In this document: in pieces, positions 26,798 through 37,306 of the stretch
Numbering within the stretch: position 1 is the stretch's first letter
How the letters are laid out: each line of letters opens with the position of its first letter
NCBI GenBank assembly: GCA_964453555.1
Contig: CAYVPC010000001.1
Span: forward strand, 2,340-66,339
From: an uncultured Hyphomicrobiales bacterium
Lineage (GTDB): Bacteria > Pseudomonadota > Alphaproteobacteria > Rhizobiales > Xanthobacteraceae
Length of the DNA: 64,000 nucleotides
Direction of reading: 5' to 3'
Translations under genes and position numbers: made by a program
Notes under the pieces: generated by a model
Databases searched by the model: none
What the model saw: only the letters and a program-made list of their open reading frames with translations
What the model was told of the DNA's origin: nothing

Positions 26798-28369
26798 CTA
26801 TCGCTTCCCCCACGGTACCCACGACCACACGCGTTCGTGGCAGTAGTAAATCAGGATCTTCGTCAAAACCTCTGTGACCGCGACCGATCCGGCGACTTTC
26901 GGGCTGCCGGTGATGACGAATGCCACGATGAACGTATCGAGGCTGCCGGTCGCGCGCCAACTTACGGCTTTCGCCAGCGAGCGGCCGTGCGTTTCGGTCC
27001 AACGCGCGAGTTTGGCTTTTCCCCCGGCCGCAGATCCCGCGAGCGAGCCGATTGAGCCGCGTGGTGGAGAGACATCGTCAATGCAGCCCATCCCGACGGT
27101 GTCATAACTTTCCGGATCGATGAGGATAAAGCTTCCGGTGTCCCGGCATTCGTCGTAGCGGTCAACGGCAATGGGCCGATCGAGCTTTAGCACGCCGGAA
27201 GCGATTTCGTTCGGTGCAATCGCGTCTGCCCGAACCGGGCGCTGGGTGTTGAGATCAAATATCGATATGCCCGGTTCGATCTTCACGTTCACAGTCACAG
27301 TCGCAAGCTTAAGAAGATACCGGCGTCCGGGACTGAACGGCTCGCTGTTCATCCAGAATATTCGGGCGGAGATACGATCGCTCAGGGTTGGAGCATGCTC
27401 CAATCCAGCAAGGACATCGCCGCGAGAGGCATCAACCTGATCGGCAAAGGTTAGAGTGACTGAGCGCCCCGCTGTCGCGCGTTCTAGATCGCCGTCAAAT
27501 GTAGCGATACGTGCGATGCGGGTGATGCGGCCGGACGGCAACAGTCTAACCTGCATGTTAGTCCAAACTTCGCCGTTCGCGATCAGGCCGCTGTAACCGC
27601 GGAAGTCCGGATTGGGCCGGTTGACCCATTGAATGGGCATTCGGAAAGGTTGTGGGTTCGTTGCAGGACGAGGTTCGGCCTGTTCGAGATATTCGAGCAG
27701 CGTAAACCCTCGATACCAGGGCATTTGCGCCGAACGATCGACGATGTTGTCGCCACTTTTGGCAGCAATCGGTATGGCGGCAATCTCCGTAACGCCCACG
27801 ACCGCCGCAAAGTCGCGAAACTGCGCGGCGACTGAACGAAAGATGCCCTCAGACCATTCGGCCCGATCCATCTTGTTGACGGCCAGGACGATCTTCTGCA
27901 CGCCAAGCATCGACAGGATAACAACGTGACGCTTCGTCTGTGCGGTCAATCCGTCATCCGCGCTAACCAGTACTAAACCCAGGTCAGCGAGCGACGCGCC
28001 CGTAGCCATATTGGCTGTGTATTGTTCGTGGCCGGGCGCATCGATGACAATGAATTTACGCCGCGCTGTTTCAAAAAAGCGATAGGCGACATCTATTGTG
28101 ATTTTTTGTTCACGCTCGGCGGCGAGGCCGTCCAGCAACAAGGCGAAATCAAGAGCGCCGTCCTCGGCGCCGTGTTTGCGTGAATCGGCGGCGAGAGCGT
28201 CGAGCTGATCGTCAAATAGTTGCTTGGACTCATAGAGCAAGCGCCCAATCAAAGTCGATTTGCCATGATCGACCGAGCCGCAAGCTACAAATCGCAAAAG
28301 GCTTTTGCGCCCGTGCTGCGCTAGCAATGAAACAGAGTCGTAGCGGCTGTGCTGCGCATGCACATTCAT
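26798..28369 (-). CDS. cysN: Sulfate adenylyltransferase subunit 1 (GTPase) fused to a C-terminal DUF2061-like membrane-type domain instead of an APS kinase
   Basis: G-motifs GSVDHGKST, DAPGH and NKMD. The C-terminal ~65 aa SLAKAVSWRATGSLDTFIVAFVITG...YYCHERVWSWVPWG align with both repeats in ORF 50707..51573. The ATG overlaps the cysD stop (TGATG). Confidence 0.9.
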   Translation of the reverse strand: MNVHAQHSRYDSVSLLAQHGRKSLLRFVACGSVDHGKSTLIGRLLYESKQLFDDQLDALAADSRKHGAEDGALDFALLLDGLAAEREQKITIDVAYRFFETARRKFIVIDAPGHEQYTANMATGASLADLGLVLVSADDGLTAQTKRHVVILSMLGVQKIVLAVNKMDRAEWSEGIFRSVAAQFRDFAAVVGVTEIAAIPIAAKSGDNIVDRSAQMPWYRGFTLLEYLEQAEPRPATNPQPFRMPIQWVNRPNPDFRGYSGLIANGEVWTNMQVRLLPSGRITRIARIATFDGDLERATAGRSVTLTFADQVDASRGDVLAGLEHAPTLSDRISARIFWMNSEPFSPGRRYLLKLATVTVNVKIEPGISIFDLNTQRPVRADAIAPNEIASGVLKLDRPIAVDRYDECRDTGSFILIDPESYDTVGMGCIDDVSPPRGSIGSLAGSAAGGKAKLARWTETHGRSLAKAVSWRATGSLDTFIVAFVITGSPKVAGSVAVTEVLTKILIYYCHERVWSWVPWGKR

Positions 28370-29343
28370 CAAAAGTAACCTTCCTGCTTCTTTCGTTCCA
28401 TCGACGTCGCACCGTCGTGATCGATCACCCGTCCGCGCCGCTCGGAATCTGGGCTTTCCAGTGTTTCCCGAATGAGCTCTGGAACGGTGCGCGCGGTGCT
28501 TTGGATCGCACCAGTCAGCGGATAGCAGCCGAGCGTGCGAAATCGCACCATTTCGGTTCGAGGACGTTCGCCGGGATTGAGCGGAAATCGTTCGTCATCC
28601 ACCATGATCAGCGCATCATCGCGCTCCACCACTGGGCGCGGTGCAGCAAAGTAAAGTGGCACGACCGGAATCCGCTCTTGATGAATGTAGAGCCACACAT
28701 CCAGTTCCGTCCAGTTGGAAAGCGGAAAAACGCGGATGCTTTCGCCGCGGCGCTTACGGCCGTTATAGATGCGCCACGGTTCTGGCCGCTGCCGCTTTGG
28801 ATTCCAGAGATGGTCCGCCGTCCGGATTGAAAACACGCGTTCCTTGGCGCGCGACTTCTCCTCATCACGGCGCGCTCCGCCAATGGCGGCGTCGAAGCCA
28901 TGCAGGTCAAGCGCCTGCCGCAGGGCCTGCGTCTTCATCACATCGGTATGCAGTTCCGAACCGCTGGCGAAGGGGTTAATGCCTCGCGCAAGACCTTCCC
29001 GATTGACGTGCACAATCAAGTCGAGGCCGAGCTCGGATATGCGCGCGTCGCGAAAAGCGATCATCTCGCGAAACTTCCATGTCGTGTCGACGTGCAGCAG
29101 GGGAAATGGCGGCTTCGCGGGATAGAAGGCTTTCAGCGCGAGATGTACCAGGACCGAAGAGTCCTTGCCAATCGAGTAAAGCATCACCGGAGTTTCTGAC
29201 TCGGCGACTGCCTCGCGGATGATATGGATGCTTTCTGACTCGAGTTGCTCGAGGTTCGTCAACGACGAAGGGCCCTGCGATTGCGTATTCGCAAAAGGGG
29301 CAAAATCGTCGATGCGATCGGAAACGGGTGCGAGAGCATCCAT
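28369..29343 (-). CDS. cysD: Sulfate adenylyltransferase subunit 2
   Basis: [18 protein letters not shown]...[14 protein letters not shown]...[18 protein letters not shown]...[13 protein letters not shown] is classic CysD. Confidence 0.95.
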
Positions 29344-29373: not shown

Positions 29374-30204
29374 CTACGATGCGTCAGCGCGTGTAAAGCG
29401 GCCGTTGCTGGTCAGATGCAGGCCGCATTCTTTTTTCTGCCCCCGTTCCCACCACCAGCGCCCAGCTCGTTCCGGCTCACCGGGTGCCACCGCGCGCGTA
29501 CATGGCGCGCAGCCGATCGATAGAAAACCGCGGTCGTACAACACGTTGTATGGAACATTATTCTCCTGCACGAATGCGTGCGTCTGTTCCCGCGTCCAGT
29601 CGAACAATGGATTTGCCTTGATCAATCGGCGTGACGCGTCAAATGAGACCGGCGCGACTTGCGCCCGGTCATAGGACTGATCGGCGCGAATGCCGGTAAT
29701 CCACGCGGTGCGGTCCTTAAGCGCGCGAGCAAGCGGCGCGACTTTTCGAGTTGCACAGCAATCAAGCCGTGCTTCGACGGAGACGCGGAAGCCGTCGGTG
29801 CCTTGCCGTGCAACGAGCGCTTCGAGGTCAGCGTGGATAGGTGAAAATCCGTAAATTCGCGTTTCATAGCGCTTTTCGGTCGCTGCCCAGACATCGTGCG
29901 TCTCGGGAAAAAGCCGTCCGGTGTCGAGCGTGACCACGTCGATCGCCAGCGTCTGCGAAAAAATCGCGTGGGTGATTGCCTGATCTTCGAGACCAAAGCT
30001 CGTGGTAAAGACAATGCGGCCCGGAACATGCCTACGGAGGGTCGCCACGCGCTCGAAAAGATCGAGCACGGGGAATTCGACGGCCAACAAAGTCGCGCTC
30101 TCTCGCCGGTTTATGTCGTCGGCGATATCTGTGACTTTCTGCGGGACGTTTTGCTCGGGAGACGACGGCCGGGGGACCCCGCGCAATTTCAAAACTTCAG
30201 ACAT
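29374..30204 (-). CDS. cysH: Adenylyl-sulfate (APS)/PAPS reductase, Fe-S type
   Basis: Internal ATG (MSEVLKL...). The CC pair (RLDCCATRK) plus CAPC (SIGCAPCT) fit the [4Fe-4S] APS-reductase subtype. The catalytic KECGLH motif is present. Confidence 0.88.
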   Translation of the reverse strand: MSEVLKLRGVPRPSSPEQNVPQKVTDIADDINRRESATLLAVEFPVLDLFERVATLRRHVPGRIVFTTSFGLEDQAITHAIFSQTLAIDVVTLDTGRLFPETHDVWAATEKRYETRIYGFSPIHADLEALVARQGTDGFRVSVEARLDCCATRKVAPLARALKDRTAWITGIRADQSYDRAQVAPVSFDASRRLIKANPLFDWTREQTHAFVQENNVPYNVLYDRGFLSIGCAPCTRAVAPGEPERAGRWWWERGQKKECGLHLTSNGRFTRADAS

Positions 30205-30734
30205 TTTGGAGCAGTCCCCAGAACCCCGCTTCGTTCTGTCACATAGACTTAAAAGCCAATGACGCCAATGACCTACAAAAGAAAAGAAAATCCATACCGC
30301 GGAGCACAAGCGCCACAGATTTCCGTTTCAATTTTCCGACAAAAGTGAGAAAGGTGTGCGGCTAATTCTTTACTCCGGTGCGAGTGCGCAGAGGTCGGTA
30401 CTCCGCCTGAAGCAGCGCTCAAAAGCTCTTCGCTTCGATAGCCAATCCGTTCACACCAGACACATCCAACCAGTCTCAGCAAGGCGCAAACTCAGTCTCG
30501 GCCGGCAAAATTCGGATATTGAAAATTCGGGACCGGAAGCCCGCAAGAATCTCGCCAAATCGGAGAGGCGCTGCCTCAGGGGGCAAGCTTCTCTGTCAGT
30601 GGCGCCCGAAGAACGCGGAAATCGCCGGACCGCGCGATATTGGTCGAAATCCTCCGCGTCGTCGAAAACAAGAGTAGAAACTTCGCATCCTCTTATGGTA
30701 TATAAAATCAATGGATTAATTATGGGGGAGGGCG

Positions 30735-30875
30735 ATGCGTTTTTTGCAGCATATCGCGGTGTTCTCAGCGTTTGCGATCATTGCGGCCGTGGTCGCTCTC
30801 GGACGACCGCACGGGAGAACCGCTGCGCTCGTTGTGCCGCTTTCGGACGTTCAGGTCGCGACATTCCAAAAGTAG
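30735..30875 (+). CDS. Possible small exported/membrane peptide (46 aa) upstream of the encapsulin gene
   Basis: Below the track's size cutoff; found by eye. GGAGG lies 3 nt before the ATG. Product MRFLQHIAVFSAFAIIAAVVALGRPHGRTAALVVPLSDVQVATFQK has a signal/TM-like N-terminus. No homolog recognised. Confidence 0.25.
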   Translation: MRFLQHIAVFSAFAIIAAVVALGRPHGRTAALVVPLSDVQVATFQK

Positions 30876-31266
30876 GCCGTACGATAGGCCAGCCGTTGGG
30901 GTCAGGCCGTCGCGGCCGCTATCCGGCGTGGAGACCCAAAGTCCGCTTGCAGCAGCCTCGAATCGACTTGCACTGGAATGCCGGTGACGTGACGGCGGCG
31001 CTTCGCCTTGAACGGCTTGAAAAGCCACGCCCGACCAGACTGGCCTCTATCCATCGACTCAGTCGAATATATTTGCTCGACGACCAACAATCATGAATGA
31101 AAATATTTCAAATAGGACATTCCGGCAGCATGAGCTTCCTGATCTCGTGCAAAACAGTGGAAAATGAAGTTACTAATTTTGTGCGGGACGTGGAAAACAA
31201 CCTTCGTGGTGCTTCGTCCGCGCCATCTAATTTTTCCCATACTTACGCCACCGAGAGGCCGACCGC

Positions 31267-32232
31267 ATGGCCGACGACACTGAAGATCGCAGAACACTCG
31301 CAGAAGGCGCTGCGCGTCAACTAGCCAACGCCACAAAAACACGGGCGCAATGGGGCGGCATAACACCGCGCTGGCTCGTCCCCTTGCTGCAGTGGACTCC
31401 GGTCGAGGCCGGCATTTTTCGTTTGAATCGGGTCAAGGAAACGCGGGGCGCGACCGCCGCCTCGTCGGCGGACGTCGAATGCAGCCCGCCGCGGGATCGC
31501 GATCGCGCGCTGCCGGAAACGTTTGTGGACTACGAGGAGCAGCCGCGTGAATACTTTCTCAACGCGGTGACAACGGTTCTCGACGTGCAGACGCGCGTCT
31601 CCGACCTCTACAGCCATCCGTTCGACCAGATCCAGGAGCAGCTTCGCCTTTTGATCGAAAAGGTCAAAGAGCGCCAGGAGGGCGAGCTCATCAACAATCC
31701 CGAATACGGCTTGCTGGCTAACACCGCGCCGTCGATGAAGATCAAAACGCGCAGCGGTCCGCCGACGCCGGACGATCTTGATGAGCTCATCGCCAAAGTT
31801 TGGAAAGAGCCCGCCTTCTTTCTCGCCCATCCACGCACCATCGCTGCGTTCGGCCGCGAGTGCACAAGGCGCGGTGTCCCGCCGCCGACGGTCAACATGT
31901 TCGGTTCGCCGTTTCTGACCTGGCGCGGTCTTCCGCTGGTGCCGTCCGACAAGGTGCCTTTCGAAGAGAAGAAGAAAATCAGCAAAACCAAGATTCTGCT
32001 GTTGCGCACCGGAGAGAAGAGGCAGGGTGTCGTTGGATTGTTCCAGCCCGGCGTTCCCGGTGAAGTGCAGCCGAGCCTCTCGGTCCGCTTCATGGGCATC
32101 AACCACAAGGCGATCGCCTCCTACTTGATCTCGCTTTATTGCTCGCTGGCGGTCCTGACCGAGGACGCACTTGGCGTTCTCGAGGATGTCGAGGTCGGCA
32201 GGTATCCCGAATACGATCATAAATATGCCTGA
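31267..32232 (+). CDS. Family 2A encapsulin shell protein (SrpI-like, HK97 fold, no cNMP-binding domain)
   Basis: 321 aa. The blocks AARQLANATKT, ITPRWLVPLLQWTPVEAGIFRLNRV, TRVSDLYSHPFDQIQEQLRL, INNPEYGLLA, PTPDDLDELIAKVWKEPAFFLAHP, AAFGRECTRRGVPPP, WRGLPLVPSDKVP, RQGVVGLFQPG and LSVRFMGINHKAIASYL match my memory of Synechococcus SrpI. The stop overlaps the desulfurase start. Confidence 0.88.
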   Translation: MADDTEDRRTLAEGAARQLANATKTRAQWGGITPRWLVPLLQWTPVEAGIFRLNRVKETRGATAASSADVECSPPRDRDRALPETFVDYEEQPREYFLNAVTTVLDVQTRVSDLYSHPFDQIQEQLRLLIEKVKERQEGELINNPEYGLLANTAPSMKIKTRSGPPTPDDLDELIAKVWKEPAFFLAHPRTIAAFGRECTRRGVPPPTVNMFGSPFLTWRGLPLVPSDKVPFEEKKKISKTKILLLRTGEKRQGVVGLFQPGVPGEVQPSLSVRFMGINHKAIASYLISLYCSLAVLTEDALGVLEDVEVGRYPEYDHKYA

Positions 32233-34246
32233 TATTCACCCCGCGGCGGATCCGGGCATGGCATCGGCGGCGGCCGCGGATACCGGCCTGCCCGAGGCGA
32301 GCCAACTCGAGCAGATGGCTGCTTCGCTCGCAGCCGCGCACGATCCCACGTTGATTGCCAGGATGGCGAACGCATTGTTCATCGCGTTGCCAAACAAGCC
32401 TGTGCCGGGGCTGGGGGCGGCGTTGTCCTCGGCGCCGGTGTTTTCGGTCGAGCCGGCCTATGCTTCAATTCCAGGCGCGCCGTCCGCCGGTATGCCTCTA
32501 ACACCCAATAACAATCCCGGACTCCCCGCGGTGCCGTGGCCCGGCATGGGAGCGGCTCAGCCATCGACTCCGGGCTTCGCGACTGAACCGCGACTATACC
32601 GAGGTGTAGCGGGGCGGCCGGCGCCGGCTACGACCGGGGCGGGGAACTCATCCGTTCCTTCTTACGCATCACCGTCCGACGCCGCCGCTGCTCCGCCCGT
32701 ACAAAATGGCTTTGTCCGCGAGCCGGACTTCAGCGCGTTACCTGCGGAGCTTGCGAGCGCTCTGTCGTTTGCTCCGCACTTTAACGATGCCGCGGCTCCG
32801 TACGGGGAAATCAGTTCATTGTATGGGCCGGCGGCCGCGCCGCCCAAACCCGACCATACCTATTACTTCTTGAACTATGCGCAGCCGGTCGCCGGCCCGG
32901 CGGCCGCCACCCGGAAGACGACGTTCGATCCTTCGGTGCAATCCGTCGATCTGGGTTCTTTGGCCTCGCAACATCGGCCCGAGATCGCCGCAGCATCGAT
33001 CTCGGAGGTTCGCGCCTTCGATCCGCACGTTTTTCGCCGCGATTTCCCGATCCTCGACCAGACCGTCAATGGCCGCCCCCTGGTTTGGCTCGATAACGGC
33101 GCGACGACGCAGAAGCCGCAGACAGTGATCGACCGCCTGGTCCGTTTCTACCAATTCGAGAACTCGAATATTCATCGCGCCGCCCACACGCTGGCGGCGC
33201 GATCGACCGATGCCTATGAATCGGCGCGCGAGAAAGTGCGCCGCTTCATCAATGCGCCGAGCACGCGTGACGTCATTTTCGTGCGCGGCGCCACCGAAGG
33301 CATCAATCTTGTCGCTCAGGCATGGGGACGCAGAAATGTCGGCAAGGATGACGAGATCGTCGTCACCCATCTCGAGCATCACGCCAACATCGTGCCGTGG
33401 CAGCAGCTCGCCGTCGAGAAGGGCGCCAGGCTGTTGGTCGTCCCGGTGGACGACAGCGGTCGGGTTTTGCTCGACGAGTACGAGAAATTGCTCAGCCCGC
33501 GAACGCGGATCGTCGCGTTCGCGCATGTTTCGAATGCGCTCGGTACCGTCACCGCGGCGCAGGAAATGACGGCGATGGCGCATCGGCACGGCGCCAAGGT
33601 GCTGATCGACGGCGCCCAGTCGATTTCACATATGCCGATTGATGTGCAGGCTCTCGATGCAGATTTTTTTGTTTTTTCGGGCCACAAGATGTTTGCGCCG
33701 ACTGGCATCGGCGTCGTCTTCGGCAGGGCCGGTGAACTCGAAGCCATGCCGCCGTGGCAGGGCGGCGGCAACATGATTGCCGACGTGATGTTCGAAAAAA
33801 CGATCTTTCAAGGCGTCCCGGAGCGTTTCGAAGCGGGGACGGGAAACATTGCCGATGCGGTCGGTCTCGGCGCGGCCATCGACTACCTGAACGGTATCGG
33901 CATGAGCAATATCGCCGCCTATGAGCATGAGCTCCTGGCCTATGCCCTGCAGGGACTGTCAACGGTGCCGGGTCTCAGGCTGATCGGCTCGCCACGCGAA
34001 AGGGCCAGCGTCATCTCTTTTGTGCTCGATGAGTGCAAGACCGAGGACGTCGGCAAGGCGCTCGACCGCGAAGGCATCGCTGTGCGTGCCGGCCATCATT
34101 GCGCCCAGCCGATCCTCCGGCGTTTCGGCGTCGAAGCGACAGTGCGTCCTTCATTGGCGCTCTATAACACGACGGAAGACATCGACGCGCTGATCGATGC
34201 GTTGCTGCGCATTCAAAGCGGACGCGGTCACGCGCTCTATCGCTAA
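32225..34246 (+). CDS. Cysteine desulfurase (SufS/CsdA group II) with a ~260-aa disordered N-terminal cargo-loading domain; predicted encapsulin cargo
   Basis: Start at the internal ATG 32225 (MPDIHP...), 8 nt inside the shell gene. Residues 1-~262 are Pro/Ala/Gly/Ser-rich and low complexity. The C-terminal domain has WLDNGATTQKP, HHANIVPWQ, SGHKMFAPTGIG (PLP Lys) and RAGHHCAQP (catalytic Cys). Confidence 0.9.
   Translation: MPDIHPAADPGMASAAAADTGLPEASQLEQMAASLAAAHDPTLIARMANALFIALPNKPVPGLGAALSSAPVFSVEPAYASIPGAPSAGMPLTPNNNPGLPAVPWPGMGAAQPSTPGFATEPRLYRGVAGRPAPATTGAGNSSVPSYASPSDAAAAPPVQNGFVREPDFSALPAELASALSFAPHFNDAAAPYGEISSLYGPAAAPPKPDHTYYFLNYAQPVAGPAAATRKTTFDPSVQSVDLGSLASQHRPEIAAASISEVRAFDPHVFRRDFPILDQTVNGRPLVWLDNGATTQKPQTVIDRLVRFYQFENSNIHRAAHTLAARSTDAYESAREKVRRFINAPSTRDVIFVRGATEGINLVAQAWGRRNVGKDDEIVVTHLEHHANIVPWQQLAVEKGARLLVVPVDDSGRVLLDEYEKLLSPRTRIVAFAHVSNALGTVTAAQEMTAMAHRHGAKVLIDGAQSISHMPIDVQALDADFFVFSGHKMFAPTGIGVVFGRAGELEAMPPWQGGGNMIADVMFEKTIFQGVPERFEAGTGNIADAVGLGAAIDYLNGIGMSNIAAYEHELLAYALQGLSTVPGLRLIGSPRERASVISFVLDECKTEDVGKALDREGIAVRAGHHCAQPILRRFGVEATVRPSLALYNTTEDIDALIDALLRIQSGRGHALYR
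32351..32380 (+). other. LIARMANALF motif in the desulfurase N-terminal domain (candidate shell-targeting motif)
   Basis: Resembles the LARLANEFF-type motif reported in the disordered N-terminus of Family 2A cargo desulfurases (from memory). It is the only well-ordered-looking hydrophobic patch near the N-terminus. Confidence 0.5.
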
Positions 34247-34412
34247 TCGCCGGTCGTCTCGCTTCGAAGGCTTTAAGCGGAGATAAAGAGATCAGATTCG
34301 TATTTTTCAGACTGGGCTTTTCAGGGAACTCTCTTTCAATAATCGCAATAAATTCGCGTAATACATGCTAGCCGCGAATGACTAAACTGCCTCATCGGGT
34401 CGAGGGGCAGGA

Positions 34413-35372
34413 ATGTCAGACGCGGATCAGAAAATAAGGCAGGTGCGGGAAGACTCCAGTTTGGAGACCGAAGCGCCTTCCCCTCGCTGGAATCTCGATG
34501 CCATCGTTTCCGAGCTGAGATTCTCCCGCGAGGTTAGCCACAATATCCGGCCAAAGGGGATTTTGCGCCAGTCGCCGTCGCGCGACGCGCTTTCCAGGAT
34601 ACTCGACGATCTGTCGGCGGCGCTGTTTCCGACTCATTATGGCCAATCGGAGCTGGGCCGCGAGAACATCGACTATTTCGTCGGCGACACGTTGAACCGG
34701 GCGCTTGTGACGCTGGTCGAGCAGGTTCATCGCAGCTTGTTGTTTTCCGGCGATGTTCGCAGCCATAGCGAAGTTTACAGCGATGCGTTGTTACTCGTGC
34801 GCGAATTCGCCGCCGAACTCCCGACGATCCGTGGCGTTTTGGTCGGCGACGTGCGCGCAGCCTTCCAGGGCGATCCCGCCGCCACCAACCTCTATGAGAT
34901 TTTGCTCGGCTATCCGGGGACGACCGCGATCATTTATCACCGTCTTGCGAACTCACTCTATCGGCGTGGGGCGCCACTCATCGCCCGTCTGATTTCCGAC
35001 ATTGCCCGTTCGAAGACGGGGATCGACATTCACCCCGGCGCCGACATCGGGCCGAACTTTTTCATCGATCACGGCACTGGCGTCGTCATCGGCGAAACGA
35101 CGGTCATTGGCGAGCGCGTGCGCATTTATCAAGCGGTCACGCTCGGCGCGAGGAGCTTTCCGGCAGACAACAGCGGAACGCTGATCAAAGGGAATGCGCG
35201 TCACCCGATCATCGAAGATGACGTGGTGATCTACGCTGGTGCTACGATTTTGGGACGGGTCACGGTTGGCCGCGGCTCGACCATCGGCGGCAATGTTTGG
35301 CTCACGCACAGCGTACCGCCCAACAGCCATATTTCGCAGGCGCAGACTCGCACCAGCGAGCGTGCGGACTAG
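34413..35372 (+). CDS. cysE: Serine O-acetyltransferase (long EpsC/CysE type)
   Basis: Left-handed beta-helix hexapeptide region DIHPGADIGPNFFIDHGTGVVIGETTVIGERVRIYQAVTLG...IIEDDVVIYAGATILG and a SATase N-terminal region. Confidence 0.9.
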   Translation: MSDADQKIRQVREDSSLETEAPSPRWNLDAIVSELRFSREVSHNIRPKGILRQSPSRDALSRILDDLSAALFPTHYGQSELGRENIDYFVGDTLNRALVTLVEQVHRSLLFSGDVRSHSEVYSDALLLVREFAAELPTIRGVLVGDVRAAFQGDPAATNLYEILLGYPGTTAIIYHRLANSLYRRGAPLIARLISDIARSKTGIDIHPGADIGPNFFIDHGTGVVIGETTVIGERVRIYQAVTLGARSFPADNSGTLIKGNARHPIIEDDVVIYAGATILGRVTVGRGSTIGGNVWLTHSVPPNSHISQAQTRTSERAD

Positions 35373-35413
35373 GTCAAACCCGATCGCGTCATTATGGATC
35401 TTGGGGTCTTAAA

Positions 35414-36202
35414 ATGGTTCTTCCCGATATCAATCCGCTTTATTCGGTCTCGGGATTTTTTGTCGGCGTCCTGGTTGGATTGACGGGCGTCGGCGGCGGG
35501 GCGCTCATGACGCCGCTTCTTGTTCTGCTGTTCGGAATTCATCCAACCACGGCCGTCGGTACGGATTTGCTCTTCGCCTGCATCACCAAGACCGGCGGTA
35601 CGTTTGTCCACGGTCTGAGCAATACTGTTGATTGGAAGATAACCCGGAGGCTGGCCTCCGGCAGCGTGCCGGCCACGGCGCTGACCTTGCTTCTGCTGGC
35701 TTATTTCAACCACGGCAGCGACGAAGGCGCTTCCGGATTGATCACGACGGTTTTGGGATTCGCTCTAATCCTGACAGCGATCGCGCTGGTTTTTCGTAAG
35801 TGGATTCTCGATTTTTTCGCGACGCGCGTCGGCGAATTTAAGGAGGGGCGGGCGCGGATGTTCACTGTCGTGCTCGGCGTTTTGCTGGGCGTGCTGGTGT
35901 CGCTTTCCTCGGTCGGAGCCGGTGCCATCGGCGTCACTGTGTTGCTGATCCTCTATCCGCGGCTCCCCGTGGCGAGAATTGTCGGCTCGGACATTGCCCA
36001 TGCCGTACCGCTCACCCTCATCGCCGGTGTCGGTCATTGGTTTCTCGGTTCTATTGATTGGTCGCTGCTCGGCTCGCTGCTAGTCGGATCTCTGCCCGGC
36101 ATCGCCATCGGCAGCTACATTACCGCGCGGATTCCGGATCGCGTGTTGCGGCCGATCCTTGCCTCAACACTAGCGGTGGTCGGCGGCCGGCTGGCATTTT
36201 GA
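35414..36202 (+). CDS. TauE/SafE-family sulfite/sulfonate exporter (DUF81)
   Basis: Internal ATG (MVLPDINPLY...). Polytopic, with GLTGVGGGALMTPLL near the N-terminus and a second GAGAIGV repeat. Confidence 0.85.
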   Translation: MVLPDINPLYSVSGFFVGVLVGLTGVGGGALMTPLLVLLFGIHPTTAVGTDLLFACITKTGGTFVHGLSNTVDWKITRRLASGSVPATALTLLLLAYFNHGSDEGASGLITTVLGFALILTAIALVFRKWILDFFATRVGEFKEGRARMFTVVLGVLLGVLVSLSSVGAGAIGVTVLLILYPRLPVARIVGSDIAHAVPLTLIAGVGHWFLGSIDWSLLGSLLVGSLPGIAIGSYITARIPDRVLRPILASTLAVVGGRLAF

Positions 36203-36423
36203 GTGTTGCACTTGTGCCTTAGTAAGTAATTGAAATCAGACGTCGTGTCCTGAAACTCGTCAAGAAAGGTCTCCTTAAGCCTGCCCTTTCCTAGAGTCGA
36301 GATTAGGGTGCTAACTTGAGCCCCACATTCGTAATTTGCGCAAGGGCTAGACTGCCCATGCAAGAAACACTCACGAGTGAGAGAAGAATTGCTTGGCGCT
36401 AAATCGATAGAGGCGCGCATGAT

Positions 36424-36725: not shown

Positions 36726-37306
36726 CTAGGCGCTCTTCGCGCCCTCCGTCTCCCGCACTGCTTTCAACGCCACGCCCCACCAAATCAGATGGTCGAACAT
36801 CGCCTTCCGGCTTTGCACCAGGTATTCCAGACGTTCAATGCGGCGCCCTTCTGGACGATGCCGAGGTAAGGCTCCATCCCGATGTTCACTTCCTGCTTGA
36901 TCGGCGCCATCTGTAGTTCGATAGCCCGCCACGCAGGGTCTCAATCGCGCGGGCGGCGCCGACGCCACCGTAGCCAACAAAAGCGATGGGCTTGCGTTGC
37001 CACTCGAGGGACGCGCTGTCGAAAGCGTTCTTGAGAACCGCCGCGGGACCGTGATTGTATTCGGCGACCGTTGCAATAGAACCGTCGAACTCGCCGATAC
37101 GTTTACGCCAAGCCTCCGCCTGGGGCTCCGCCAGTATAGGCCGGCGGTGCCGGCTCATTGAAGAACGGCAGCTTGTAGTCCCGGAGATCAAGCGTTTCGA
37201 GCTTGAGATCATTCAGCGCGGCCGCGCCGTCGAGCAGCCATTTCGCCGGCATATCGGCGAACCGGTTCGGTCTGGTGCTCCCGATGATCATTCCAATCTT
37301 CAGCAT
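36726..37306 (-). pseudogene. NADPH-dependent FMN reductase, disrupted by about three frameshifts
   Basis: The N-terminus MLKIGMIIGSTRPNRF...FFNEP is in one frame. AEAWRKRIGEFDGSIATVAEYNHGPAAVLKNAFDSASLEWQRKPIAFVGYGGVGAARAIETLR is in a second, AIELQMAPIKQEVNIGMEPYLGIVQKG in a third, and RRIERLEYLVQSRKAMFDHLIWWG in a fourth. All segments are collinear with one flavodoxin-like FMN reductase. Confidence 0.8.

Follow-up and report, generated by a model that had tools for sequence, protein, structure and literature searches.

We analyzed a 64,000-nucleotide (nt) stretch of contig CAYVPC010000001.1 from an uncultured Hyphomicrobiales bacterium, hereafter the window, whose own numbering is used throughout. 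We focused on the long N-terminal domain of a cysteine desulfurase that is encoded directly downstream of an encapsulin shell gene. The shell gene lies on the forward strand at 31267-32232 and encodes a protein of 321 amino acids (aa), which was assigned to Family 2A of the encapsulins by its Pfam, NCBIfam, and PDB matches. It scored 354 bits against the Pfam family SrpI-like (PF19307) and 507 bits against the NCBIfam model NF041162 (encap_f2a, cut-off 380), where it covered the full profile (positions 1-295). The Family 2B model matched only through its C-terminal half (positions 206-450), so the shell protein lacks the cyclic nucleoside monophosphate (cNMP)-binding insertion. The nearest solved shells were those of Acinetobacter baumannii (8t6r, the best PDB match, E = 1.6e-137) and of Synechococcus elongatus (SrpI, 6x8m, E = 1.4e-131). 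SrpI is 69.5% identical to the window shell, and its residues F262 and Y273 are conserved as F275 and Y286, each within the same local sequence (SVRFMGIN and ASYL(I/V)SLY). In SrpI these two residues adjoin cargo density (PMC8049743).

The desulfurase open reading frame (ORF; 32225-34246, forward strand, 673 aa) opens at the ATG at 32225. The 8-nt sequence ATGCCTGA (32225-32232) is shared by the two genes, with the TGA stop of the shell gene overlapping the desulfurase ATG, which suggests translational coupling. The catalytic domain (33011-34246, forward strand) is of the SufS type (class II) according to Pfam, TIGR01979, and PDB. Aminotran_5 matched residues 287-656 (E = 3.9e-145), the TIGR01979 sufS model gave 565 bits with an alignment beginning at residue 270, and the best structural match was PDB 8kg1 from Mycobacterium smegmatis (4.7e-177). 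The pyridoxal-phosphate lysine is K488 in SGHK and the catalytic persulfide cysteine is C626 in GHHCAQP; H487/K488 and H624/H625/C626 were invariant among 62 homologs. At the C-terminus, the SufS fold runs to about residue 664 of 673. The whole protein also passed NF041166 (f2_encap_cargo1, family 2A encapsulin nanocompartment cargo cysteine desulfurase) with 825 bits (cut-off 800), and the alignment paired residues 32-663 with profile positions 12-623 of 623. This small margin is expected with a variable N-terminal domain. Many database relatives of the desulfurase are already named as family 2A encapsulin cargo desulfurases.

Composition and conserved islands of the N-terminal domain

The N-terminal domain comprises residues 1-262 (32225-33010, forward strand), is rich in Pro, Ala, Gly, and Ser (PAGS), and is predicted to be unstructured. 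A boundary near residue 262 is right, given that the Aminotran_5 match opens at residue 287 and that alignments to SufS structures begin at about residue 256-270. Ala (21.8%), Pro (14.9%), Ser (9.5%), and Gly (7.3%) together make up 53% of this tail, compared with 29% of the catalytic part; charged residues account for 11% and Cys does not occur. We compared the 45 non-overlapping window ORFs that are 200 aa or longer, and the tail was the PAGS-richest 262-aa stretch among them (0.538; next 0.408; median 0.328). No Pfam or NCBIfam family matched residues 1-262 alone. An earlier note on this DNA, made from the sequence by itself, had described the first ~262 residues as dominated by these four amino acids and free of enzyme motifs, and our results agree with it on both counts; all the strings it quoted were found in their places, including LIARMANALF at 32351-32380. 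A protein-database search with residues 1-262 returned a single 174-aa fragment and was uninformative, as low-complexity words swamp the candidates. Relatives were instead collected with the full-length desulfurase.

From 62 aligned full-length homologs, AlphaFold2 gave a predicted local distance difference test score (pLDDT) below 50 throughout residues 1-263 (10-residue block means 27-42), compared with 60-96 in the catalytic core. Only four short helices were predicted in the tail, at residues 25-35, 41-52 (containing LIARMANALF), 169-179, and 214-217, and three of the four coincided with the conserved islands described below.

We fetched 80 genome loci with relatives of the shell, whose shell proteins were 70-91% identical to that of the window, from Alpha-, Beta-, and Gammaproteobacteria, Myxococcota, and Acidobacteriota. 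A SufS-type domain was found downstream of the shell gene on the same strand in 77 of the 80 loci, the remaining three being cut short. The tails of 78 homologs ranged from 120 to 446 aa (median 300, interquartile range 247-364), and their PAGS fraction from 0.42 to 0.63 (median 0.54). The window tail is therefore typical of the family in length and composition.

Conserved islands were defined from an E-INS-i alignment of 77 tails and a closer alignment of 62 homologs. Island profiles were built from the close alignment and searched against 79 tails; to count as a match, a tail had to score above the level that 1% of shuffled tails surpassed. The background between the islands was poorly alignable across tails. 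Island I1 (32339-32392, forward strand as for all islands) comprises residues 39-56, HDPTLIARMANALFIALP, and includes the predicted helix 41-52 as well as LIARMANALF (residues 43-52). Its consensus is PDPAxIARLANaFFaAlP, for which the published form is LARLANEFFS. The I1 profile matched 76 of the 78 other tails, from Alpha-, Beta-, and Gammaproteobacteria, Myxococcota, and Acidobacteriota, the two exceptions being one alphaproteobacterium and S. elongatus. The D, A, N, and final P of the island (D40, A48, N49, and P56 in the window) were 95-99% conserved, and the median start was residue 36.

Two further islands were found in several phyla. Island I4 (32720-32782) comprises residues 166-186, EPDFSALPAELASALSFAPHF, with a predicted helix at 169-179 and the consensus EaD(L/F)RA(I/L)PaSLgG...P, also written (E)xDFxALPxxL. 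It matched 21 of 44 alphaproteobacterial, 19 of 22 acidobacterial, both myxococcal (2/2), the one betaproteobacterial (1/1), and 2 of 7 gammaproteobacterial loci; the profile gave no match in the tails of S. elongatus or A. baumannii. Island I5 (32849-32887) comprises residues 209-221, PDHTYYFLNYAQP, and is the published AASPYYFLDG motif. Its Y-F-L core was 84-96% conserved, and it matched 37/44 alphaproteobacterial, 7/7 gammaproteobacterial, and 1/1 betaproteobacterial loci but only 4/22 acidobacterial ones. It was also present in S. elongatus (GSGFYFIDE) and A. baumannii (GESPYYFLNDF). The earlier note had proposed that additional shell-contact motifs might exist, for example ALPAELASALSF or YYFLNYAQP. 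Both fall in real islands, the first at residues 171-182 within I4 and the second at residues 213-221 within I5 (HTYYFLNYAQP at 211-221), although the latter is not new, being the published motif. The alignment of N-terminal domains that the note had recommended thus did reveal conserved islands, I1 being nearly universal and I4 and I5 extending across phyla.

The other three islands are confined to a close clade of Bradyrhizobium, Xanthobacteraceae, and Hyphomicrobium. I2 and I3 (32405-32590) comprise residues 61-99, PGLGAALSSAPVFSVEPAYASIPGAPSAGMPLTPNNNPG, and 104-122, PWPGMGAAQPSTPGFATEP. In the 62 close homologs, G64, P83, G84, P86, P94, P98, G109, and A110 were invariant, and the two islands were detected in 12/44 and 11/44 alphaproteobacterial loci, respectively, and almost nowhere else. 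Island I6 (32921-32980) lies just 5' of the catalytic domain and comprises residues 233-252, FDPSVQSVDLGSLASQHRPE; within the clade H250 was invariant and D242, L243, L246, and Q249 were at least 90% conserved. It was detected in 13/44 alphaproteobacterial loci and in none elsewhere. A string running from PGLGAAL to STPGF that the earlier note had quoted corresponds to residues 61-118. The PGLGAAL-type element (residues 61-67) occurred in 9 of 79 tails, all from the close clade. It loosely resembles the GPxGxGTxxL motif of Family 2B cargo; given this restricted distribution, we do not claim homology.

Probable cargo loading and comparison with known systems

Residues 1 to ~262 are very probably the cargo-loading (targeting) domain of a Family 2A "desulfurase encapsulin". 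This assignment, which the earlier note had also made, holds because the gene adjoins a Family 2A shell gene, the protein passes NF041166, the tail carries both published motifs, and the threefold-pocket residues of the shell are conserved. Family membership, motif conservation, the unstructured prediction, purifying selection (see below), and pocket conservation were all observed at this locus. The necessity and sufficiency of such tails for encapsulation have been shown only in homologs (PMC8049743, PMC10836720, PMC11659603).

By analogy with these homologs, encapsulation, the assignment of islands to shell sites, and sulfur storage by the window protein may be pictured as follows. The shell and desulfurase genes, overlapping by 8 nt, would presumably be co-translated, and the 321-aa shell protein would assemble, presumably into a T=1 shell as in the solved homologs. 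The short hydrophobic islands (PDPxxIARMANALFxxLP, DFxALPxxL, and YYFL) would contact non-polar patches on the inner, luminal surface of the shell, chiefly the conserved threefold-axis pocket (F275/Y286 here). The long linkers would allow several weak contacts to act together, so that binding would be multivalent and discontiguous. The SufS-type dimer would thereby be tethered inside the shell, where the encapsulated enzyme would convert cysteine to alanine and deposit the sulfur as stored S(0), as in Acinetobacter.

The cluster of S. elongatus PCC 7942, located on a plasmid, is similar in several respects. Its CyD (Synpcc7942_B2661) is likewise a tail joined to a SufS-type domain, encoded directly after the gene of the Family 2A shell SrpI, and the cluster also has an EpsC-type serine O-acetyltransferase (SAT; 56% identical) and a YYFL/FYFI motif. 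The CyD N-terminal domain has been described as a disordered 225-aa region with sparse conservation (Nichols et al. 2021, PMC8049743), and the same study found LARLANEFFS and AASPYYFLDG in most SrpI-associated desulfurases; the LARLANEFF-like motif mentioned in the earlier note is thus a published property of these tails. In S. elongatus, loading was poorer with the first 100 residues and absent with the YYFL motif by itself (PMC8049743). CyD itself (L081:5150-7030) lacks a literal LARLANEFF(S) and has diverged copies, ERSLEQLTQTVLQD at about residue 24 and ERSLAQLAQAVLQD at about residue 87, which the I1 profile did not detect. LARLANEFF is the family consensus, to which the window protein is closer than the cyanobacterial one. 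The cyanobacterial tail is shorter (~218-225 aa) and rich in Ser, Thr, and Gln (in percent, P15 S13 A12 T10), whereas that of the window is Ala-rich (A22 P15 S10 G7). The difference from the cyanobacterial example that the earlier note had pointed out is thus real for this pair, yet the window tail is ordinary among the 78 homologs. The genes are also arranged differently: the shell and CyD genes are ~235 nt apart in S. elongatus and overlap in the window, and the desulfurase gene is followed by a rhodanese gene in the former and by the SAT gene in the latter.

In A. baumannii, the loading domain has been described as ~225 aa long, rich in Pro, Gly, and Ser, with five partly conserved motifs, and the loaded compartment stores elemental sulfur (Benisch et al. 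2024, PMC10836720), which has been demonstrated in Acinetobacter alone. This tail (~225-253 aa, P/G/S-rich) carries DESTIARLANEFFSAVP and GESPYYFLNDF at positions similar to those in the window, and its gene has an overlapping start. It differs in that I4 was undetected and a second FYFL copy is present, and the window tail is far richer in Ala. I4 may be one of these five motifs (PMC10836720). The Enc-CD of M. smegmatis, which is paired with Mmp1, belongs to this system too and has an intrinsically disordered region (IDR) with multiple short motifs. Loading requires the IDR, and individual motifs are insufficient for it (Tang et al. 2024, PMC11659603; PDB 8wol, 8won, 8kg1). This region is only ~155 aa long, and its motifs were defined on mycobacterial sequences only.

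The Family 2B cargo 2-methylisoborneol synthase of Streptomyces griseus (PMC11550324) also has an N-terminal disordered domain rich in Pro, Gly, and Ala, which has redundant binding elements and binds the homologous hydrophobic threefold pocket. Family 2B differs from the window system in its cargo enzyme, in the cNMP-binding-fold insertion of its shell, and in its motif, GPxGxGTxxL. Family 1 targeting peptides are ~10-20 aa long and usually C-terminal, and a single motif suffices, with one site per protomer. As in Family 1, the cargo would be directed to the shell lumen via a conserved luminal site, whereas the window domain is long, N-terminal, and carries several motifs. No Family 1 targeting peptide is involved here, as the extension is N-terminal and 262 aa long and the shell is SrpI-like rather than of the PF04454 type.

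Several points weigh against the cargo-loading assignment or the details of the loading model. The AlphaFold2 model had a mean pLDDT of only 52.5 and was based on a shallow alignment; because of this modest quality, the low confidence in the tail supports disorder without proving it. The Uversky charge-hydropathy plot placed the tail on the "folded" side. It did the same for 79 of 79 homologous tails, including the experimentally characterized ones, and was dropped as a disorder test, since it fails for all of these low-charge Pro/Ala-rich sequences. The window has H39 at a position of I1 where 88% of the homologs have P. To our knowledge, there is no species with an atomic model placing a given motif at a given shell site, and binding of LIARMANALF to the threefold pocket is unproven. 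Some homologous tails have been shown by experiment to be protease-sensitive and invisible in maps. With these caveats, the pLDDT values of the window tail and its four short helices are consistent with disorder.

A review from 2025 names the conserved hydrophobic threefold pocket as the binding site and states that the precise mechanism has not yet been elucidated (PMC12746231). The earlier note had called LIARMANALF an anchor. It does lie in the most conserved island, but the term is overstated, as single motifs were insufficient in homologs (PMC11659603, PMC8049743). A 10-aa LIARMANALF tag would probably not load cargo, because single motifs were insufficient in M. smegmatis and YYFL alone fails in S. 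elongatus.

The tail is an already well-described domain, a typical new member of a known system. The window adds one typical alphaproteobacterial (Bradyrhizobium/Xanthobacteraceae-like) desulfurase encapsulin to a class already named by the NCBI annotation pipeline. Its modest value lies in the comparative map, in which PDPxxIARLANxFFxxxP is nearly universal, DFxALPxxL and YYFL are patchy across phyla, and several elements are clade-specific. This map could guide truncation or peptide-binding work, for which any family member would be equally suitable.

Alternative roles and translation of the domain

The tail might, in addition, act as a multivalent scaffold similar to CsoS2 of carboxysomes that nucleates or steers shell assembly, and it may determine how many cargo copies are loaded or the conditions in the lumen under which sulfur is deposited. 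This role, which we put forward only tentatively, is compatible with the loading model and extends it without replacing it. It is consistent with the presence of several separate conserved islands on long linkers, with the comparison of the binding mode to CsoS2 by Benisch et al. (PMC10836720), and with a stand-alone loading-domain-only gene beside the shell gene in three genomes. However, Family 2A shells assemble cargo-free in heterologous hosts (apo-SrpI and empty A. baumannii shells), and nothing in the window bears on assembly.

It is less likely again that the clade-specific islands I2, I3, and I6 (residues 61-122 and 233-252) bind a non-shell partner, such as the co-encoded SAT or a sulfur acceptor or donor, or make extra lineage-specific shell contacts. 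The conservation of G64, P83, G84, P86, P94, P98, G109, A110, and H250 across 62 sequences of the close clade is unusual for a linker, and the three islands are absent from other phyla by profile. On the other hand, the overall identity of 60-83% gives conserved blocks through short divergence time alone, and the whole tail is only 64-66% identical in the nearest relatives, compared with 93-94% for the enzyme. Partner binding is also unsupported by co-variation or interaction evidence. We consider it similarly improbable that the clade-only blocks PG(L/P)GAALxSAPVFxxEPxYxSIPGxP...PNxNPG...GAAxPS and LDLxxLAxQHRP are lineage-specific elements serving as extra shell contacts or docking sites. 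If they were, the loading domain would be a platform built of modules that vary from one lineage to another.

The remaining two alternatives, an untranslated tail and a secretion linker, are effectively excluded. The first holds that the true start lies downstream, the frame being open as a side effect of high G+C content. The region is indeed G+C-rich with abundant spurious antisense ORFs, no clear Shine-Dalgarno sequence precedes the ATG at 32225, and the public database gene call for the desulfurase (662 aa; P0002) begins 11 codons later, at M12 (nt 32258). Nevertheless, the candidate starts M1, M12, and M31 all precede LIARMANALF, and no ATG occurs between residue 108 and the catalytic domain. 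Despite sequence turnover, nearly all of the 77 loci had an uninterrupted frame between the shell stop and the catalytic domain. Amino-acid motifs are kept across phyla, the curated full-length model aligns from residue 32, and homologous tails are present in purified proteins (PMC8049743, PMC11659603).

We also compared the tail with its counterparts in the closest relatives for which DNA was available, L083 and L084, whose cargo proteins are 81-82% identical to that of the window. The ratio of nonsynonymous to synonymous substitution rates (dN/dS) of the tail was 0.24 and 0.35 (64-66% amino-acid identity), well below 1, so the tail is protein-coding in this frame and under purifying selection. 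The corresponding values for the catalytic domain were 0.06 and 0.04 (93-94% identity), indicating selection on the tail that is about five-fold more relaxed than on the enzyme. Net tail length differed from L083 and L084 by 39 and 3 nt, both multiples of three; a test for multiple-of-three indels was too noisy, as the aligner scattered compensating gaps of 1-2 nt. A downstream start, which the earlier note had named as a result that would count against its reading, is thus contradicted by the open frame, the dN/dS values, and the motif conservation, and we consider an untranslated tail next to impossible.

As to the exact start, the ATGCCTGA junction is unchanged in L083 and L084, both proteins open with MPD, and gene callers chose this start there too. 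The start at 32225 is better supported than M12 because M12 is Ser or Thr in these two relatives, whereas ATGCCTGA and MPD are conserved; M12 is the less likely start. More broadly, 52 of 72 loci had their nearest ATG overlapping the shell gene at its 3' end, with offsets of -7, -13, -22, -25, and -28. Two loci were unusual. In L004 the frame was open from the shell stop, yet the first ATG, GTG, or TTG was 412 nt downstream, and in L012 the catalytic-domain match began only at query residue 95, within a short ORF. Frameshifts, pseudogenes, or assembly errors may account for these cases.

A Pro/Ala-rich linker for secretion or surface anchoring, with no encapsulin role, has a negligible chance of being correct: envelope proteins also have such low-complexity regions, but the N-terminus MPDIHPAADPGMASAAAAD has neither a positive n-region nor the hydrophobic core of a signal peptide, and the domain is found specifically 3' of Family 2A shell genes.

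Related loci and neighboring genes

Three Methylococcaceae-type loci outside the window contained a stand-alone Pro/Ala/Gly-rich ORF of 377-392 aa between the Family 2A shell and desulfurase genes (L044:6866-8044, L047:5888-7027, and L050:3681-4814). These loading-domain-only ORFs have an I1-type element, IAQLANALFAALPG, which is clear in L044 and L047 and diverged in L050, together with an I4-like stretch, DAELRAAPASLAGLGG, two copies of I5 (YYFLE/FYFLEE), and no enzyme domain. They end in TAA or TAG, followed by the Shine-Dalgarno sequence AAGGAGAA and the ATG of the desulfurase, which has its own short tail of 128-151 aa. The loading-domain-only protein may be a cargo-less scaffold, a filler, or a competitor. 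A keyword literature search found no paper mentioning such a stand-alone gene.

In the window, the desulfurase gene is followed by a gene for an EpsC-type SAT (34413-35372, forward strand; NF041874 EpsC, 161 bits, cut-off 150). The protein shares 56% identity across 298 aa with the SAT encoded beside srpI on the S. elongatus plasmid, and both are 319 aa long. SAT is a conserved companion in desulfurase encapsulin operons. The window SAT has an N-terminal extension of ~140 aa before its hexapeptide domain. Next lies a gene for a membrane protein of the TauE/SafE sulfite-exporter family (35297-36202, forward strand; Pfam TauE, 156 bits, residues 51-299). Its longest ORF overlaps the end of the SAT gene by 76 nt (35297-35372). 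As the Pfam match begins only at residue 51, translation probably initiates at a codon downstream of 35297. A TauE gene likewise adjoins the shell/desulfurase pair in L083.

On the opposite strand, upstream of the shell gene, we found cysH-, cysD-, and cysN-like genes, and the genomic setting is a sulfur-assimilation neighborhood. The CysN-like GTPase ORF (26798-28372, reverse strand, 524 aa) has a C-terminal segment of DUF2061, a predicted membrane protein family (residues 466-517), and not an adenosine 5'-phosphosulfate (APS)-kinase domain. A gap of ~950 nt (30310-31266) separates the divergent cysH-like and shell genes and presumably holds the regulatory region of both operons. The ORFs in this gap matched no Pfam family, and neither an Rfam family nor a sigma-70-like promoter was found in it. 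Scanning the whole window against Rfam likewise yielded nothing, as did the sigma-70 promoter scan of 30200-36400. Terminator-like matches numbered 11, compared with an expected 6.8 +/- 2.4; one of these was inside the tail (32418-32437) and was judged to be due to chance. Farther downstream, an ORF of 107 aa on the reverse strand (36886-37209) matched only positions 58-133 of the 152-position FMN_red profile and represents a truncated NADPH-dependent FMN reductase gene or else one with a misplaced start.

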